This document shows, in pieces, positions 1 to 17,382 of a stretch of 33,484 nucleotides of DNA. The translations under genes and the position numbers were made by a program. The stretch comes from Tricharina praecox (lineage: Eukaryota). The stretch covers positions 496,001 through 529,484 of the forward strand of contig NW_026250430.1 of assembly GCF_024521635.1 (NCBI RefSeq), written 5' to 3'. Position 1 is the first letter of the stretch. Each line of letters begins with the position of its first letter. A model generated the notes under the pieces. It worked only from the letters and a program-made list of their open reading frames with translations. It made no database searches and was not told the origin of the DNA.

Positions 1-53
1 GTATGTGTGTCCCATCCGATGTTCCGCTCTCCGGGTTCTGACATATCCGGTAG
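1..53 (+). other. Spliceosomal intron of the OSBP gene
   Basis: GTATGT donor at 1, CTGAC branch at 38-42, TAG acceptor at 51-53, immediately before the GVKKPLNP codons. Confidence 0.8.
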
Positions 54-1337
54 CGGCGTCAAGAAACCCCTAAACCCGATTCTCGGCGAGCGCTTCACCT
101 GCCACTGGGACTTTGCGGCGGCCCCGGGAACCCAGGCCTTCTACATTGCCGAACAGACGTCGCACCACCCACCGAAATCGTCGTACTTTTACATGGCGCC
201 CCACCACCACATCCGGATTGACGGCACGTTGAAGCCGCAGTCGCGCTTCTTGGGAAATTCTGCCGCGTCAATGATGAACACCTCTGTCGTGATCATGCGG
301 TTGCTGAACCGCGGCACGTCGGCAGGGAAACAGGGTGGAGGAGAGAAGTACATCCTGACGCAGCCAAACATGTATGTGCGCGGTATCCTGTTCGGTAAAA
401 TGAAGTACGAGCTTGGGGACCACGCATATGTTCGGTGCTCAGAGTTGGATCTGGTCGCGGATATCGAGTTCAAGGTGAAGGGGTTCTTCACCGGCGCGTA
501 CAATGCTATTGGCGGTTTCATCAAGCGGGAGAGCACCGGCGAGAACCTGTACGAGATCACCGGTAGCTGGAACGCGGACATGTACATCAAAAACCTGATG
601 GTGAGTTTACTTGGCCGATGAATACGGCAGCGATGCTAACGATTGAAAGACGGGGAAACGGGAGCCGTTGTTCGACGCTACGCAGACCGCCGCGACACCG
701 CCGACCGTACGACCGATCGAGAAGCAGGATGAACGCGAGTCTCAGCGGCTGTGGTATGAAGTCGTTTCCGCTCTCAAAAGGAGGGACCAAGATGTTGCCA
801 CCGCCGAGAAGTGCAAAATCGAGGACCGGCAGAGGGAAGAGGCCCGACTCCGTGAGGCGGATGGCGTCGAATGGCAGCCCCGGTACTTCCGACCCGTCGA
901 GCCTGGCACCGGTGACGAAGATGCGTTGGACTTCATCTTAGCGACACATATGTAAGTTCCCTCTCCCGTGACCCTCACCACTCATTCAACTAACTCCACA
1001 TAGCAACGAGGAAGCCTCACCCGAGGAACAAATCAAGCAAATCTTACAAATCGCTCCGATAGTAGATGGTGAACCGCGGCCCAGCAAGTACGACATTCCC
1101 CCACACCACCCCCACAATGACGCGCCTCACCAGGCACTACCAATAGGTAACACCGCTACGGATACACCGGGATCGGAGTCGGGACTAATCGACTTTTCGC
1201 CGCAAGTAGTAGGACAAGCACCTGCGTCACTCGGAGGTCCCCAGCTGGTACCGACGGATAAAGGAATCGCGCCCGCTGGCCAACCCAAACCTAGGAGTGT
1301 CAACAGCGACGATGAGTTTGTTGACGCGCAGAGTTGA
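54..1337 (+). CDS. Oxysterol-binding protein (OSBP/ORP, Osh6/Osh7-like), 5'-partial; exons 54-600, 650-951, 1004-1337
   Basis: The translation contains KKPLNPILGE and EQTSHHPP (ORD signature EQVSHHPP), plus KCKIEDRQREEAR..WQPRYF. Removing introns 601-649 and 952-1003 joins ORFs 7..621 and 668..955 and a last exon ending SDDEFVDAQS* (TGA 1335-1337) in one frame. Confidence 0.92.
601..649 (+). other. Spliceosomal intron of the OSBP gene
   Basis: GTGAGT donor, GCTAAC branch, AAG acceptor. Removal restores the frame (NLM|TGKREPLFDA). Confidence 0.88.
952..1003 (+). other. Spliceosomal intron of the OSBP gene
   Basis: GTAAGT donor, ACTAAC branch, TAG acceptor. Removal gives an open last exon to 1337. 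Confidence 0.85.
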
Positions 1338-6017: not shown

Positions 6018-6423
6018 TGTCACAGTTCAGAAATCCAGGCCTTAAGTAGCTACTGGGATGATGGCCTTCAGCCATCAAAATACCTTTTGGTGGAGTATAG
6101 TACTTTCCCAGTGTACTTTATTACAGTTTGATGACAGCCAAGGTCATGCGTTCAATTCCCACTACGAGCAGTTACTTTCCTATGCTGCAGCGTTGTTCAG
6201 GAATGGGATGGCTTACAGTGAGTGATGGTTTATGATTCTTATCATGAAATATGACTCATTGGGGGTTAACTACTTGAAGGCTTCCTGGAGTAAGCCCCTA
6301 AAGAGGGGATACTGTCAGAGTTCAGAAATCCTTGCCTTAAGTAGCTACTGAGATGATGGCCTTCAGCTATCAAAATACCTTTTAGTCGAGTGGTATAGTA
6401 CTTTCCCAGTGTACTTTATTACA
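6018..6423 (+). mobile_element. TRIM-like miniature non-coding LTR element (family D): LTRs 6018-6125 and 6313-6423, 187-bp internal region
   Basis: Two direct repeats of 108 and 111 bp, each TGTCA...TTACA. PPT AAAGAGGGGATAC lies before the second repeat. Solo copies with 5-bp TSDs elsewhere in the window show the family is mobile. Confidence 0.88.
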
Positions 6424-6489
6424 CTGGCAGGGTGAATTCCTCAGGGTCTGGCTTATTACACTGGCAGGGTGAATTCCTCAGGGTCTGGC
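6416..6489 (+). repeat. Perfect 37-bp tandem duplication across the D/A-LTR junction
   Basis: TTATTACACTGGCAGGGTGAATTCCTCAGGGTCTGGC at 6416-6452 and 6453-6489. Confidence 0.95.
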
Positions 6490-8023: not shown

Positions 8024-8536
8024 ACTAACAATCGCTTGATGGCACCGTTGTTGGTCGTATCCAGGATAAGTCTTTGTCTCCTTCGTCCCCTATTTTCCGT
8101 TTGTCTAGTCTCTCAGTGTCAGGAATGGTTGTGGAGGAATCATCAATGGAAGGAAAACATGTTGTTATATTCTGTAACCTTTTGTTTGGTGACGAAACCA
8201 TTGCCACGCATGCGCTGATCAACTGTGGGGCAACCGGAATTGCATTTGTAAACAAAGACTTCGCCCGCCATCACCACTTACCCCTCGTGCCACTGAAATC
8301 TCCGCGCACCCTCGAAGTTATCGATGGCTATCCCATCGAGTCAGGCTGTAATAAAGTACACTGAGAAAGTACTATACGACTCGACCAAAAGGTATTTTGA
8401 TGGCTGAAGCCATCATCTCAGTAGCTACTTAAGGCCAGGATTTCTGAACTGTGACACAGGCGACATTACACATGTTGCCAACACCAACCTGTCCATACAG
8501 TAACACCACGAATAAATCCCTATGTTTGTCACCAAA
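8011..8536 (+). pseudogene. pol: pol 5' end (aspartic protease) of A1, interrupted by a D solo LTR
   Basis: GGGAAAA slippery site at 8011. ALINCGATG corresponds to ALIDCGATG in A2, so the catalytic Asp is lost. In-frame stops are present. Confidence 0.88.
8347..8456 (-). mobile_element. Family-D solo LTR (110 bp), TSD CAGGC
   Basis: Reverse complement of 6018-6125. CAGGC at 8342-8346 and 8457-8461. Confidence 0.93.
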
Positions 8537-9000: not shown

Positions 9001-9111
9001 TGTAATAAAGTACACTGGGAAAGTACTATACCACTCGACCAAAAGGTATTTTGATGGCTGATGGCCATCATCCTAGTAGCTACTTAAGGCCAGGATTTCT
9101 GAACTGTGACA
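9001..9111 (-). mobile_element. Family-D solo LTR (111 bp), TSD GTCGT
   Basis: Reverse complement of the D LTR. GTCGT at 8996-9000 and 9112-9116. The empty site is visible in the C2 LTRs. Confidence 0.94.
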
Positions 9112-11296: not shown

Positions 11297-11806
11297 TGTC
11301 ACGGCTCGCGACGGGACATTTGAGGAAGAGTCGGAACAGGGGTGGGAAGGCAGCGCGGGGGCAGTGCAAGGGGCTGCGCGGGCTGCAATGCAGGAATGAG
11401 CCGGAGGAATTGGGGCTGTGTGCAGTAAGCAGGGGTAGTGCGGCTGCGCAGGGTATGAGTCACGGAAGCGGGGTACTGGCAAGGTGGATTTCTCAGGGTC
11501 TGGCACACGCCCACGGTTATTGTCAGGTTGCGAGAAGAAGTGGAGGGTTTCCTATATAAACGGGCCGTTGCCCCTCTGTACTTAGTTCTTCACGCAACAA
11601 CTTGTTAATTCAATCACTGTTACCTCTGTCCTTGCCTCGGCTGCCGTCTGCGCCGTAGTCCTTGTCCCTGCCTCTGTTCTCAGTTGCCGTCCGCACTGAG
11701 CCCTGCCTCACCTTGTCCTCTGAACCTGTCTTGTCTCTGCCGAACCTAGAACCCGATTCCGAGCCCGACTTCGCTACCTGGAGCCTTGCCCGACCGTGCC
11801 GTTACA
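11297..11806 (+). repeat. A2 5' LTR (510 bp), TATATAAA at 11553-11560
   Basis: TGTCAC...GTTACA; direct repeat of 16872-17382. Confidence 0.97.
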
Positions 11807-11845
11807 CTTTGTTGCGTCGCCCATCTCTCCACCTAGCGAAGAACC

Positions 11846-13036
11846 ATGGCCACCAATACCCCAGCACCAGACCCTCCCCAGCAGGAGGAAGTACTGGTGG
11901 CACCTCCCTACTGTCGAGAAATTCCCGCCACTGTCTACGAACAACTCGAGATCATCGTTAACCACGACTCACCCGCCGACAATGCAACACTGTCGGGGTT
12001 GTATAACCAGTTCCAAATCATAGCCCGTGCAATCACCCAATCCCCCACAGCAGCACCCACCTGGCGAATAGACGACCTCGAAGAACAACTTGCCAACTCC
12101 CGTCGTATCGCCAACCGTCTCGCCACACTAGAAACCCAACCCCAGGGCCGCGCCGAGCGCGTCCCGGAGCCAGCCATGTTAGATGGCACTCGAGAGAAGC
12201 TCGAAGGGTTCGTTGCCCAGCTTCGACTCAAACTATACAGCGACCCTACCCGTTTCCCGTCCCCAGCACTCAGAATGGCCTACACCTTCAACCGTCTCGA
12301 AGGCCGTGCCCAAGCCCAGATACTGCCGTACATCCAGAACAACGTGATCAGCTTGACCGACGCCGATGCCATGGTCACCATCCTCGAAAACGCCTTCGGC
12401 GATCCCGACCCAGCAGCCACCGCACGCGCCGAACTTCACCGCCTCAAGCAAGGAAACAAGGACTTTACGTCTTACTTTGCGGAGTTTCAAAGACTCGTGT
12501 CCAAGCTGAACTGGGACGAGCATGCCAAACTCGACGCACTCCGCGAAGGAGTCTCCATCGAGCTCCACCGACAACTGGTGGGCCGCACTCAGGGACTCAC
12601 CTACAACCAGTTCGTGGCTCTCTGCCAGAGCCTCGATTCCGAGCTACGTGCCCTCCAACTCCGTGAAGGCCGCCGCAACCCCCCGCGACAAAACCCCACC
12701 CCGCAACCCCCAGCTCCGCCGAGGAATCAAACGCATAACAGTACACCACCGGCAACCACTGCAACCGGAACAGCCCCAGGGGCTATGGACCTCAGCGCGA
12801 ACAGTCGCAAGATCTCTGATCAAGAACGAGCTGCGCGTCTCCGCGAGGGTCGGTGCCTATACTGTGGAGGCAGTGGCCACATGGCCCGACACTGCCCGAA
12901 CAAGAATCGGAACCCTTTCCGTGCCGCAGCTGCACAGCTGACGCACGAGCAACCTGGAACCCTGACCCCCGACCACCCATACCACAATTGCAACCAGAAT
13001 TGTGGCGACAACCAAGGACAGTCGGGAAAAGCCTAG
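11846..13036 (+). CDS. gag: Gag of A2 (capsid-like domain and CCHC zinc knuckle)
   Basis: 396-aa ORF with LKQGNKDFTSYFAEF (major-homology-like region), AMDLS and CLYCGGSGHMARHC. Confidence 0.95.
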   Translation: MATNTPAPDPPQQEEVLVAPPYCREIPATVYEQLEIIVNHDSPADNATLSGLYNQFQIIARAITQSPTAAPTWRIDDLEEQLANSRRIANRLATLETQPQGRAERVPEPAMLDGTREKLEGFVAQLRLKLYSDPTRFPSPALRMAYTFNRLEGRAQAQILPYIQNNVISLTDADAMVTILENAFGDPDPAATARAELHRLKQGNKDFTSYFAEFQRLVSKLNWDEHAKLDALREGVSIELHRQLVGRTQGLTYNQFVALCQSLDSELRALQLREGRRNPPRQNPTPQPPAPPRNQTHNSTPPATTATGTAPGAMDLSANSRKISDQERAARLREGRCLYCGGSGHMARHCPNKNRNPFRAAAAQLTHEQPGTLTPDHPYHNCNQNCGDNQGQSGKA

Positions 13037-16000
13037 ACCAACAACTGCTTGATGGCACCGTTGTTGGTCGTACCCAGGATAAGTCTTTTTCTCCCTTTTC
13101 TACTCATTATCGTTTGTCCAATTTGTCAGTGTCTGGGATGGTAGTGGAGGAATCATCAATGGAAGGAAAACATCTCGTTGTACTATGTAACCTTTCGTTT
13201 GGTGACAAAACCATTGCCACGCATGCGCTAATCGATTGTGGAGCAACCGGAATCGCCTTTGTAGACAAAGACTTCGCCCGCCATCACAACCTACCCCTTG
13301 TACCCCTTGAATCCCCGCGCGCCCTTGAGGTCATCGACGGCCGCCCCATCGAGTCCAGCGACATCACACACGTTGCCACCACCACCCTGTCAATCCAAGA
13401 TCACCACGAAGAACTCCCGATGTTCGTCACCAAACTGGGGCACTACCCAATCGTACTCGGAATTCCCTGGATGGACCTACACGACGTGGCCATCCGATTC
13501 AGCTCACGCACCCTCACCTTTGGTTCCCAATATTGCACTGCACACTGCAATACGGTACCCACAGTAGCCCACGGTATCACCACAGACCCACCGGAACTAC
13601 CTTACGCTCTCGCACCAAACGTAGCTCTGGAGGAGCCAGCGGTAAGCGCGGGGGCCGGCGACATCGTGGCCCGATACGTTACGTCTCCCCAGATCAATGA
13701 ACACCAGCAGGATGCTAACCAGAGAAAACCCACGGTCAGAATCTCAGCCCTCCGGATGAAGTCTTTCCAGCAGATGGCAGGAAAGGAGAACCTCACCATC
13801 TCCACCACGACCCTGAGGGAGATCAATGAAGTTCTATCTGAAGAAAAACAGAGCTCAACCGCCCACATTCCCCCCGAATATCACGAATTTCTCCACCTGT
13901 TCTCCGAAAGGTTGGCGCAGAACCTACCACCCCATCGGCAATACGACCACAAGATCCCACTAAAGGAAGGATTTGTGCCCCCTTACGGACCCCTCTATTC
14001 GCTCTCGAAAACCGAGCTGGTCGCACTCAAGGAATGGCTTGACGACAATCTGAGCAAGGGATTTATCCGTGCGTCCTCATCACCAGCGGCATCACCGATC
14101 CTGTTTGTCAAAAAATCGGACGGCTCCTTGCGACTGTGTGTGGACTATCGAGGCCTGAACGAAGGAACCATCAAGAACCGCTACCCACTTCCCCTGCTCC
14201 AGGAAACCTTGATGCGACTGTCCGGTGCAAAGTATTTTACAACACTGGATATCCGCGGTGCTTACAACCTGGTACGAATGGCAGAAGGGGAGGAATGGAA
14301 AACGGCCTTCCGGACCCGCTACGGACTTTTCGAATCATTGGTCATGCCTTTCGGGCTAACCAACGCGCCAGCCGACTTCCAAGCCCTGATCAACGACGTT
14401 TTACGACCGTTCCTGGACGACTTCTGTGTTGCCTTCCTAGATGACGTCTTTGTCTACAGCGCGTCACTGGAAGAACACCAAAAACAGGTCACCAAAGTGC
14501 TACGCGCCCTTTCATCGGCCGGACTGCACTTGATACCGGAGAAATGCCACTTCCACCAGACGGAGGTCAAATACCTGGGCCTGATCATAACCACGGAGGG
14601 TATTAAGATGGATCCTGCCAAAGTCTCTTGCGTACTCGAATGGGAAAAACCGACGACGGTAACGGATGTGCAGTGTTTCTTGGGCTTTGTGAACTTCTAC
14701 CGACGCTTTATCCAGGACTACTCTAAGGTGGTATCTCCCCTGACGGCAATGACAAAAAAGGAAAATGGGAAGTACGTCCCCTTCGAATGGGGTATTGACC
14801 AACAGCAAGCCTTCGACACTCTCAAGACTGCCTTCACTAGCGCCCCGATCCTCCGACATTTCGACTACGACCGAGAAATAGTGGTGGAAACTGATGCCTC
14901 GGATTACGTATCGGCCGGTATCCTCTCCCAGTACGACGACGATGGAATCTTGCATCCAGTTGCCTTCTATTCAAAGAAACACTCCCCGGCGGAATGCAAT
15001 TACGAAATCTACGACAAAGAATTGTTGGCGATTGTTCGGGCCTTTGAAGAATGGAGACCACACCTTGAAGGAGCCGCGCACCCGATCCAAGTCCTGAGCG
15101 ACCACAAGAACCTGGAATACTTCATGTCAACCAAGTTGCTCAACCGCCGGCAAGCACGATGGTCGGAATTCCTGTCCCGTTTCGACTTCAAAATCGTCTA
15201 TCGACCTGGTAAAGCAGGAGGGAAACCGGATGCATTGACAAGGAGGTCCGGAGACCTCCCTAAGGAGGGGGATGAAAGACTGCTGGCGAACCAACAAGCA
15301 GTCCTCAAGCCCCAAAACCTGCCGGAAGAATTGAGATTGTCAGCAACCAACCCGTTGGAAGTACCCCGTCCCGCACTCTCTACCCTGATAACCGAAGCAT
15401 ATCAGGCAGATCCAGTGCCGAACAAGGTCCTCCAACTGCTCAGAAACGGAACACGCCACTCGAAGGACATCTCGCTCGCCGACTGCAGCGAAGTCAACGG
15501 ACAATTACATTACCGCGATTGCCTCTACGTTCCTGAACACGACACACTCAGACTTCGCCTGATCCAGGACCACCACGACCCGCCGGCTATGGGCCATCCC
15601 GGAAGAGCAAAAACCTTGGAACTCCTGGCCCGGAACTACTACTGGCCCCAGATGCGGAAGGACGTTGACCGATTCGTGAGGAACTGCCACACTTGCAGAC
15701 GAACCAAAGCAACAAGACACGCCCCCTACGGTGTGCTCCGCCCACTCCCAGTACCCGAGAAACCCTGGCAACATATATCCGTCGACTTCGTAACCGGACT
15801 CCCTCCCTCAAAAGGATTCGATGCCATTTGCGTATTTGTGGACCGCCTCACCAAGCAACGACACCTGCTCCCCTGCAACACGACCATCACCTCCGAGGGG
15901 CTCGCCGAACTATTCTGCGATCGGATCTTCAGATACCACGGACTACCCGACACCATCGTATCGGACCGGGGCCCCCAGTTTGCCTCACGATTTTGGAAAC

Positions 16001-16974
16001 ATCTATGCTCTTGCCTCAAGATCGACGCACGACTCTCCACGGCGTTCCACCCGCAGACAGACGGTCAAACAGAGAGGATGAATGCGGTAATGGAACAACA
16101 CCTCCGGGCATACGTGAGCTACCTGCAGGACGACTGGGTCGACTACCTATTCTTAGCAGAGTTCGCTGGCAACAACCAGACATCCGACACCACTACCCTG
16201 TCCCCGTTTTTTGCTAACCTAGGCTACCACCCCCGTTGCGACTTCGAGCTTGACATCCGAACCGACACGAACGAAGAGCGACAGGCGCAGACAGCGGTAG
16301 AGCGACTCCAACAGATCCACGACGTTGCCCGAAGTGAGATGCGCTACGCCCAAGCACGGCAGCAGGACAACACGGACCGGCACCGAACCCCCGCACCGGC
16401 CTTCCAGCCTGGAGACATGGTAAGGGTGGACGGCCGAAACTGGCGGACGGAGCGGCCAAGCCGAAAACTGGAAAACAAACACCACGGACCCTATCGGATA
16501 ACCCGAGCCATCGGAACCCACGCATACGAACTGGACATCCCGAACACCATCCAAAAGCACCGCACCTTCCCAGTGTCCCTCCTCCATGCATCGGCCGACG
16601 ACCCCCTCCCCGGCCAGATCCTGCCGCCACCGTTACCGGTAATTGTGAACGACCAAGAAGAATGGGAGGTGGAGGAAGTGCTGGACAGCAGAACGCTGAG
16701 GGGAAGACTCCAGTACCTAGTCAAGTGGAGGGGTTTCACGGCACCGACGTGGGAACCTGAGGAGAACCTTGTGGACGTACAGGCAGTGGACGACTTCCAC
16801 CAACGGTACCCAACGAAGCCTGGACCAGTTCAACTTGCTCTCGTGGGAACTCGAGCCTTAGGAGGGGCTACTGTCACGGCTCGCGACGGGACGTTTGAGG
16901 AAGAGTCGGAACAGGGGTGGGAAGGCAGCGCGGGGGCAGTGCAAGGGGCTGCGCGGGCGGCAATGCAGGAATGA
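12853..16974 (+). CDS. pol: Pol of A2 (PR-RT-RNaseH-IN-chromodomain), probably entered by -1 frameshift at 13024-13030
   Basis: LIDCGA; LCVDYRGLN; MPFGLTNAPA; FLDD; VETDASD; H..GH..C..C; ISVDF/IVSDRG/TDGQTER; GPY; WEVEEVLDSR..YLVKWRGF..TWEPEENL. The domain order is Ty3/gypsy. Confidence 0.96.
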   Translation: MPILWRQWPHGPTLPEQESEPFPCRSCTADARATWNPDPRPPIPQLQPELWRQPRTVGKSLDQQLLDGTVVGRTQDKSFSPFSTHYRLSNLSVSGMVVEESSMEGKHLVVLCNLSFGDKTIATHALIDCGATGIAFVDKDFARHHNLPLVPLESPRALEVIDGRPIESSDITHVATTTLSIQDHHEELPMFVTKLGHYPIVLGIPWMDLHDVAIRFSSRTLTFGSQYCTAHCNTVPTVAHGITTDPPELPYALAPNVALEEPAVSAGAGDIVARYVTSPQINEHQQDANQRKPTVRISALRMKSFQQMAGKENLTISTTTLREINEVLSEEKQSSTAHIPPEYHEFLHLFSERLAQNLPPHRQYDHKIPLKEGFVPPYGPLYSLSKTELVALKEWLDDNLSKGFIRASSSPAASPILFVKKSDGSLRLCVDYRGLNEGTIKNRYPLPLLQETLMRLSGAKYFTTLDIRGAYNLVRMAEGEEWKTAFRTRYGLFESLVMPFGLTNAPADFQALINDVLRPFLDDFCVAFLDDVFVYSASLEEHQKQVTKVLRALSSAGLHLIPEKCHFHQTEVKYLGLIITTEGIKMDPAKVSCVLEWEKPTTVTDVQCFLGFVNFYRRFIQDYSKVVSPLTAMTKKENGKYVPFEWGIDQQQAFDTLKTAFTSAPILRHFDYDREIVVETDASDYVSAGILSQYDDDGILHPVAFYSKKHSPAECNYEIYDKELLAIVRAFEEWRPHLEGAAHPIQVLSDHKNLEYFMSTKLLNRRQARWSEFLSRFDFKIVYRPGKAGGKPDALTRRSGDLPKEGDERLLANQQAVLKPQNLPEELRLSATNPLEVPRPALSTLITEAYQADPVPNKVLQLLRNGTRHSKDISLADCSEVNGQLHYRDCLYVPEHDTLRLRLIQDHHDPPAMGHPGRAKTLELLARNYYWPQMRKDVDRFVRNCHTCRRTKATRHAPYGVLRPLPVPEKPWQHISVDFVTGLPPSKGFDAICVFVDRLTKQRHLLPCNTTITSEGLAELFCDRIFRYHGLPDTIVSDRGPQFASRFWKHLCSCLKIDARLSTAFHPQTDGQTERMNAVMEQHLRAYVSYLQDDWVDYLFLAEFAGNNQTSDTTTLSPFFANLGYHPRCDFELDIRTDTNEERQAQTAVERLQQIHDVARSEMRYAQARQQDNTDRHRTPAPAFQPGDMVRVDGRNWRTERPSRKLENKHHGPYRITRAIGTHAYELDIPNTIQKHRTFPVSLLHASADDPLPGQILPPPLPVIVNDQEEWEVEEVLDSRTLRGRLQYLVKWRGFTAPTWEPEENLVDVQAVDDFHQRYPTKPGPVQLALVGTRALGGATVTARDGTFEEESEQGWEGSAGAVQGAARAAMQE
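13024..13069 (+). promoter_or_regulatory. -1 ribosomal frameshift signal: G GGA AAA plus stem-loop
   Basis: The heptamer is in the gag frame two codons before the stop, and pol is in the -1 frame. GACCAACAAC (13036-13045) pairs with GTTGTTGGTC (13060-13069) after a 5-nt spacer. Confidence 0.82.
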
Positions 16975-17382
16975 GCCGGAGGAATTGGGGCTGTGTGCAG
17001 TAAGCAGGGGTAGTGCGGCTGCGCAGGGTATGAGTCACGGAAGCGGGGGTACTGGCAAGGTGGATTTCTCAGGGTCTGGCACACGCCCACGGTTATTGTC
17101 AGGTTGCGAGAAGAAGTGGAGGGTTTCCTATATAAACGGGCCGTTGCCCCTCTGTACTTAGTTCTTCACGCAACAACTTGTTAATTCAATCACTGTTACC
17201 TCTGTCCTTGCCTCGGCTGCCGTCTGCGCCGTAGTCCTTGTCCCTGCCTCTGTTCTCAGTTGCCGTCCGCACTGAGCCCTGCCTCACCTTGTCCTCTGAA
17301 CCTGTCTTGTCTCGGCCGAACCTAGAACCCGATTCCGAGCCCGACTTCGCTACCTGGAGCCTTGCCCGACCGTGCCGTTACA
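16872..17382 (+). repeat. A2 3' LTR (511 bp)
   Basis: Direct repeat of 11297-11806, preceded by AGGAGGGGCTAC. Confidence 0.97.

Follow-up and report, generated by a model that had tools for sequence, protein, structure and literature searches.

Tf1/Tf2 and the Tf1/sushi chromoviruses (Tj1, Tosmo1-3, Tcry1 and, as proposed, Tcn1) carry a PBS that is complementary to the predicted 5' end of their own RNA. The RNA is described as folding into an enclosed U5 stem with a third ('pretzel') duplex (PMC10085805), and an 11-nt primer is cut from it by RNase H (PMC7175516). Among the TRIMs, the Helenus families are presented in the accessible portion of Kojima (2024) as having both boxes inside each LTR, as being primed by tRNA and, in fungi, as belonging to Copia (PMC10886601); within that portion, the author reports that no LTR-PBS complementarity was found. 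The same portion gives Cassandra, a plant TRIMp3 of 5S type, as the only validated Pol III TRIM, with an unknown helper and an RNA that starts and ends within the LTRs and has an 18-nt terminal repeat (PMC10886601). Each Cassandra LTR is further credited with a promoter derived from 5S, and the PBS of the element with being of tRNA-Met type (PMC7215508). A paper on bivalve TRIMs mentions self-priming, in the passages available, for autonomous elements only (PMC6934838).

Here, a TRIM of Tricharina praecox is described from a stretch of 33,484 nucleotides (GCF_024521635.1, contig NW_026250430.1, positions 496,001 to 529,484), referred to as the window. Our main reading is that this element is self-primed, depends on a chromovirus helper (family A) and is transcribed by Pol III, a combination to which we assign a probability of about 0.55.

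The element and its surroundings

The following features of the window define the element and its nearby relatives.

6018..6423 (+): decayed non-coding TRIM copy, consisting of a 5' LTR, a 187-nt internal region and a 3' LTR
6018..6125 (+): 5' LTR (TGTCAC..TTACA), 108 nt; 111 nt in most copies
6218..6260 (+): long internal hairpin
6300..6312 (+): polypurine tract (PPT, 6300-6309) plus TAC, near-identical to the PPT of chromovirus family A
6313..6423 (+): 3' LTR, 111 nt
8347..8456 (-): TRIM solo LTR, TSD GCCTG
9001..9111 (-): TRIM solo LTR within a family-B LTR, TSD ACGAC

By structure the element is a TRIM with a variant PBS. It is shorter than 1 kb (406-409 bp), has a short LTR pair (two LTRs of 111 nt with TG..CA ends), TSDs, dispersed copies and a PPT before the 3' LTR, and is non-coding, the longest stop-free frame in one young copy being 66 aa. 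A tRNA-complementary PBS, which belongs to the TRIM definition in the available wording of PMC6934838, is absent, as the PBS pairs with the LTR instead. Rfam and ARAGORN searches of the TRIM matched no RNA family and no 5S. The long internal hairpin might, as a guess, serve packaging or dimerisation.

The two LTRs of the window copy agree at 101 of 111 positions. This copy sits in a family-A LTR and its left flank is family-B-like internal sequence; a 37-nt tandem duplication at 6416-6489 combines the terminal 8 nt of the TRIM with 29 nt from the surrounding family-A LTR. Because of this flank and this duplication, the copy is regarded as rearranged, and it has no TSD of its own. A search of the genome (38 Mb) with the TRIM gave 47 matches. 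The LTR set used below holds 75 distinct full LTRs from all loci retrieved, labelled as 18 5' LTRs (L028 mislabelled), 22 3' LTRs and 35 solo LTRs, and family counts are lower bounds. An exact 5-bp TSD borders 19 of the 35 solo LTRs. The family has moved recently, since among 16 two-ended copies 6 are each flanked by a 5-bp TSD and two copies have identical LTRs. Searches for sister families in the same genome returned this one family only, and no related TRIM was found in viral contigs. Moreover, a metagenome scan gave 10 loci and 0 TRIMs, the part in common being only the PPT and the LTR start.

The window copy is surrounded by nested chromodomain Ty3/gypsy elements, which belong to two families and extend over window positions 5331-33484, and 37 of 40 TRIM loci adjoin family A or B sequence. 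At the edge of the repeat nest, window positions 1-621 hold a portion of a gene for an oxysterol-binding protein (PF01237). Other repeats were also noticed. Another dispersed family, about 250-300 nt long (L196, L198-L207, L210; G000 C2, C13, C16, C22, C26, C28, C29, C32, C33, C38), combines A and B boxes of tRNA type with a 60-nt upstream part that is conserved, with G-rich stems and with a (TTTTTG)n end; it comprises more than 20 diverged rows and no LTRs were seen. Three of its loci gave no Rfam match, and it is a candidate SINE-like element or Pol III RNA gene family. A three-copy tRNA-like family (L195:760-844, L196 on the minus strand, L197) has an intron-like insert and no clear anticodon arm, and its L195 copy has no Rfam match. 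The single-copy L209:704-782 has motifs resembling A and B boxes, contains an internal repeat and ends in T5, likewise with no Rfam match.

Self-complementary PBS and probable chromovirus helper

The elements of the predicted RNA fold are as follows.

6059..6065 (+): U3 half of the LTR hairpin; it lies 5' of the predicted start and hence outside the RNA 5' end
6069..6079 (+): self-primer region, with the predicted RNA 5' end at C6069 or A6070; holds the 3' hairpin arm 6071-6077
6082..6086 (+; about +14 to +19): LTR strand of the third ('pretzel') duplex, pairing with 6140-6144
6095..6124 (+): U5 stem-loop inside the primer:PBS duplex
6127..6137 (+): PBS, complement of 6069-6079 at 9/11 positions here and at 11/11 in 14/20 copies

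A preliminary description of this DNA had placed the PBS, TTTGATGAC, at 6127-6135 and paired it with GCCATCAAA at 6071-6079, the latter being also an arm of a TGATGGC-N5-GCCATCA hairpin. Both 9-mers are present, the first after a 1-nt G spacer, and the hairpin lies at 6059-6065/6071-6077. The pairing is real and its length has to be corrected, as the complement measures 11 nt (6069-6079). The predicted family PBS, TTTGATGGC, was correct: the family PBS is TTTGATGGCTG, exact in 14 of 20 aligned copies, and is the complement of CAGCCATCAAA at 6069-6079, which is unchanged in 56 of the 75 LTRs. The PBS of the window copy carries two substitutions (6134, 6136). Among 20,000 dinucleotide shuffles of the LTR, a complement of at least 11 nt arose twice, and the 7-nt exact match of the window copy was reached 554 times; the case for the complement thus rests on the family and not on the window copy.

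The minimum-energy fold of young copies includes the 11-bp duplex around the U5 stem, with a z of -4.4 for the 74-nt piece, and the primer:PBS duplex is absent from the fold of the window copy. A third duplex, formed by the LTR and the bases just after the PBS, completes a Tf1-like three-duplex shape. Over 16 distinct rows, the three helices are paired in 94%, 95% (U5 stem) and 81% (third duplex) of cells. The covariation of PBS and LTR envisaged in the preliminary description did not appear: among 32 pairs there were 0 compensatory changes and no two-sided change, and the shuffle control was not exceeded.

A comparable arrangement is found in the neighbouring chromoviruses, of which family A is represented in the window by the following features.

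11297..17382 (+): member of family A, the probable helper; chromodomain Ty3/gypsy, TSD ACGGT
11553-11560: TATA of family A
11592-11600: self-primer-like 9-mer of family A
11809-11817: site complementary to this 9-mer
11837-13036 (+): gag of family A
12820-16974 (+): pol of family A

Both autonomous families of the window, A and B, carry a site complementary to their own LTR at offset 2 from the 5' LTR, the site differing from one family to the next; in the 5' region of family A, the 9-bp duplex is absent at minimum energy. No TATA box is seen in family B at the usual distance above its 11-mer.

Over the PPT and the beginning of the LTR, TRIM and family A agree at 19 of 22 nt. The same stretch ends chromodomain elements in metagenomes, and one of these, when translated, ends in SH3 and chromodomain. 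Furthermore, TRIM and family A are joined end to end at seven junctions, six on the right and one on the left (among 57 right and 53 left TRIM flanks), each with a 2+2-nt linker: GT+AG four times, GT+AC twice and CT+AC once. The linker halves are the dinucleotides beside each element's own LTR, namely GT after the TRIM 5' LTR, CT after that of family A, and AC, which precedes the 3' LTR of both. These junctions would represent ligated, unprocessed cDNA ends. A loose junction pattern was not commoner than its control (140 vs 201), tight patterns yielded no further junction, and L229 was rejected as a TRIM end.

At locus L212, a complete family-A element is linked to a complete TRIM by such a junction, and a single 5-bp TSD encloses the two, the target being contiguous in family B; the LTR pairs are identical at 509/510 (family A) and 111/111 (TRIM) positions. 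This is a co-integration of the TRIM with family A, and it is seen in the DNA, as are the repeated transposition and the anatomy. Among the five composites retrieved, the shared TSD is present in one and absent in the other four; L006 stops at a contig edge. L213:155-1239 holds a full TRIM, an inverted family-A solo LTR and an inverted TRIM solo LTR, with 2+2-nt linkers at both joints. Family B, in spite of its own self-complementary site, was rejected as helper, since it has no PPT and no junction in common with the TRIM. Family A is identified as the helper by co-integration, and self-priming with family A as helper is considered as highly probable.

As the junctions put the end of the TRIM cDNA two bases after CA, the simplest reading is a primer that pairs from internal base three onwards. 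It would then have a length of 9 nt with a start at A6070, or of 10 nt with a start at C6069, like the family A 9-mer. The PBS probably begins two bases after the LTR with its functional part from 6128, and the primer probably ends at 6078. In HIV-1, a primer base is left as a ribonucleotide, and by analogy the 11th primer base of the TRIM may be retained as one.

Putative promoter, possible primers and predicted transcript ends

The putative promoter consists of two parts.

6088..6097 (+): A box; 3-nt deletion here, intact in most LTRs and in the window 3' LTR
6140..6171 (+): tRNA-like 3' half, with variable-loop-like AAGGTC, a T arm with the B box at 6150-6158 and an acceptor-like tail

Only the A box lies in the LTR and the B box occupies internal positions 25-33, so that both boxes come together only at the 5' LTR/internal junction. 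The A-box-like motif of the preliminary description holds for most LTRs, but is broken in the window 5' LTR, which scores 2.8 against 12.1 in copy L004. The matrices were built from host tRNA genes (15 A boxes, 14 B boxes) and applied to motifs that had been seen before the test; with them, the L004 boxes score 12.1 (A) and 13.0 (B), where host tRNA genes range over 11.5-16.9 and 10.3-16.5. The pair score of 25.2 was reached by 0 of 2,000 shuffles, and the LTR regions of families A and B score 9.1 and 6.3. Additionally, the A/B box pattern has 141 genomic matches as compared to 4 for the reversed control.

In yeast, Pol III begins transcription 18-20 nt 5' of box A, and the boxes are 31-93 nt apart (PMC4937561). 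As box A begins at 6088, a Pol III start is expected at 6068-6070, which falls on the primer start. The earlier proposal that promoter geometry and priming agree on one start therefore stands, with the position moved from about 6070-6071 to 6069-6070. Upstream of host tRNA genes, there is only a broad CA-rich zone with no single start base, which also admits a later start. A 188-nt soil metatranscriptome contig covers L004 positions 1553-1710 and 1723-1752 with the 5' T4, PBS and B box, and begins with the A that corresponds to 6070; being one contig of one study, whose ends cannot mark a start, it is not counted as evidence. Two further sequence sets with the TRIM family, of uncertain kind, list no variant in primer or PBS.

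No tRNA gene within 2 mismatches of the T arm and tail was found as a donor. By eye, tRNA-Cys(GCA) comes closest at both boxes (13/15, 17/21) and tRNA-Ile(AAT) has the 10 nt before the T arm in common with the TRIM; both were rejected as donors, as their acceptor stems fail to match. The TTAA noted earlier is present at 6042-6045, but its promoter role is unsupported: as its conservation does not exceed that of the remaining U3 (each column has 3-6 letters of 75 outside the majority), it was rejected as a TATA-like element.

Judged on these motifs, synthesis of the TRIM RNA by Pol III from a promoter spanning the 5' LTR/internal junction is slightly favoured. The Pol III origin suggested at first is thus plausible, and the B box in the internal region gives it more support than could be seen at the time. 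The leading alternative retains self-priming and helper A but assigns transcription to Pol II, the boxes being relics of a captured tRNA or SINE; the RNA would then come from a weak TATA-less LTR promoter or by read-in from the surrounding retroelements. Against this alternative, the U3 of 51 nt lacks a TATA; family A, by comparison, carries TATATAAA 31 nt above its primer. Read-in might be supplied by the family A or B sequence beside the great majority of loci, and the primer:PBS duplex also forms when the RNA begins further upstream, but read-in would hardly yield a free 5' end at the primer. The boxes are in the right order and spacing and score like those of host tRNAs, with the A box at Pol III distance from the primer; yet their conservation does not exceed background, the B box being no better conserved than other internal segments (0.039 vs 0.025-0.104; core intact in 14/20). 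The two common A-box variants fall at positions that vary among host tRNAs, which is a weak argument in favour of Pol III, while the T4 at +17 to +20 is a hazard for this polymerase in T. praecox. On balance, Pol II transcription is a possible but somewhat unlikely reading.

A different primer has also to be weighed. A host tRNA 3' end or tRNA half could prime, as in fungal Helenus, with the LTR match as a relic; fungal Helenus families use anticodon-loop primers according to the available text of PMC10886601. The preliminary description had itself named a tRNA 3' end or fragment as the competing match. Among 35 distinct host tRNA sequences (55 genes, nine amino-acid types), which make the comparison a partial one, the best PBS match is 5 nt at the tRNA 3' end and 6 nt inside, and the TRIM PBS does not start with TGG. 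The exact 11-mer has 97 genomic sites, 61 of them on TRIM copies already known; of the remaining 36, 15 are further TRIM LTRs and none lies within a tRNA gene in this search for exact matches. tRNA genes with introns are present in the T. praecox genome and, together with its chromoviruses, point to a fungal host. Moreover, the partner of the TRIM is a chromovirus, a group described as self-priming in the accessible part of PMC10085805, and not Copia. Priming by tRNA is therefore very improbable. Tf1-type self-priming, as first proposed, is well supported and held with strong confidence, because the 11-nt complement is family-wide, the three-duplex anatomy is present, no tRNA fits and the helper has its own site at the same offset.

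The transcript 3' end involves two further features.

6085..6088 (+): T4 of the 5' LTR, with predicted read-through
6354-6360/6366-6372 (+): 3' LTR hairpin, followed by 7 nt and T4 at 6380-6383 (candidate RNA 3' end)

Runs of at least four T occur on the sense strand only at +17 to +20 of each LTR (13/21 copies). T4 is a plausible terminator, but also a hazard at the 5' end, since the first T-run after the host tRNA gene is T4 in 24 of 51 cases; most transcripts might thus be cut short there, after about 20 nt. As its left arm lies in U3, the hairpin forms only in the 3' LTR copy of the RNA, where it has -10 kcal/mol; the first 20 nt of the RNA alone are unfolded. All 7 hairpin pairs are retained in 59 of 75 LTRs, and the conservation of the U3 arm is no higher than that of U3 overall. 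In vitro, a hairpin released yeast Pol III when it stood 0 or 7 nt before T4, and failed to do so at 18 nt (bioRxiv 10.1101/2021.08.27.457903). That the RNA ends at the 3' LTR T4, gated by the hairpin, while the 5' LTR T4 is read through, is proposed tentatively. Under this model, the terminal repeat R would be about 18-20 nt, and with an end at T4 the first strand transfer would have 8-10 nt of homology to work with. This is short but possible, because Tf1 RT clamps 2-nt overlaps in vitro, mainly with Mn2+, as stated in the accessible part of PMC3035444. The 3' hairpin would also hide the second primer copy. Priming from the RNA 3' end, in which the 3' R copy of the 11-mer pairs with the PBS and is then trimmed or cleaved, can draw on the same 11-mer in the 3' LTR near the predicted RNA 3' end, but is scarcely credible, as that copy is locked in the hairpin with U3 and the R region that strand transfer needs would be destroyed.

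Proposed mechanism and comparison with known systems

With self-priming, helper A and Pol III taken together, the following course can be proposed. The TRIM RNA would start at 6069-6070 and travel in particles of chromovirus family A. At its 5' end, the B box would complete the Pol III promoter, and the uncapped first 9-10 bases would act as RT primer, pairing with the PBS two bases after the LTR in a Tf1-like three-duplex fold; RNase H of the helper would free this 5' piece. At the 3' end, the U3 hairpin would mask the second primer copy and activate an otherwise weak T4 terminator. The plus strand would be primed from the PPT common to TRIM and helper, and the helper integrase would insert the TRIM cDNA with a 5-bp TSD. 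This full model, a Pol III-made and tRNA-independent TRIM whose one 111-nt LTR has different roles at its two positions and which uses family-A particles, is put forward with caution and is possible rather than probable. If it were true, Tf1-type priming would operate on an uncapped Pol III RNA, a hairpin-gated T4 terminator would act naturally as an LTR switch, and a very low bound would be set on the length of R. The helper being known from co-integration, and the start, primer end and 3' end being predicted within a few bases, Pol III transcription and self-priming are directly testable. Annotation based on a tRNA PBS misses such elements, and the self-complementary PBS explains why.

As compared to Cassandra, the modelled terminal repeat is alike (about 18-20 nt here, 18 there), and the TRIM has no 5S or other Rfam match. 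It resembles Helenus/TRIMp3, as far as the available descriptions go, in being shorter than 1 kb, in its 5-bp TSD in fungi, its tRNA-type A and B boxes and its many solo LTRs; it differs from Helenus in the internal position of its B box, in a PBS that pairs with the LTR and in having a chromovirus of the Ty3/gypsy type as partner. An assignment to Helenus was therefore rejected, with only box A in the LTR, a self-complementary PBS and chromovirus co-integration. The small-RNA-gene Pol III motifs that define a TRIMp3 are represented by the A and B pair, which falls within the host tRNA score range, and the element would be a TRIMp3 if Pol III transcription is confirmed. In the full-text literature, with Repbase and most subscription papers outside its reach, no published self-priming or split-promoter TRIM was found, and the combination of self-priming, an identified helper and tRNA-gene-like transcription in one TRIM appears to be undescribed.

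The likeness to the Tf1/sushi group lies in the pairing of self-primer and PBS in a three-duplex fold, here without compensatory changes. Unlike that group, the TRIM is non-coding and helper-dependent at 406-409 bp, with its own RT, integrase and chromodomain absent; its junctions suggest a 9-10-nt primer at offset 2, and its U3 lacks a TATA, the element having tRNA-type boxes instead. Thus, the TRIM works like the Tf1/sushi group but is not a member of it, being gene-less.
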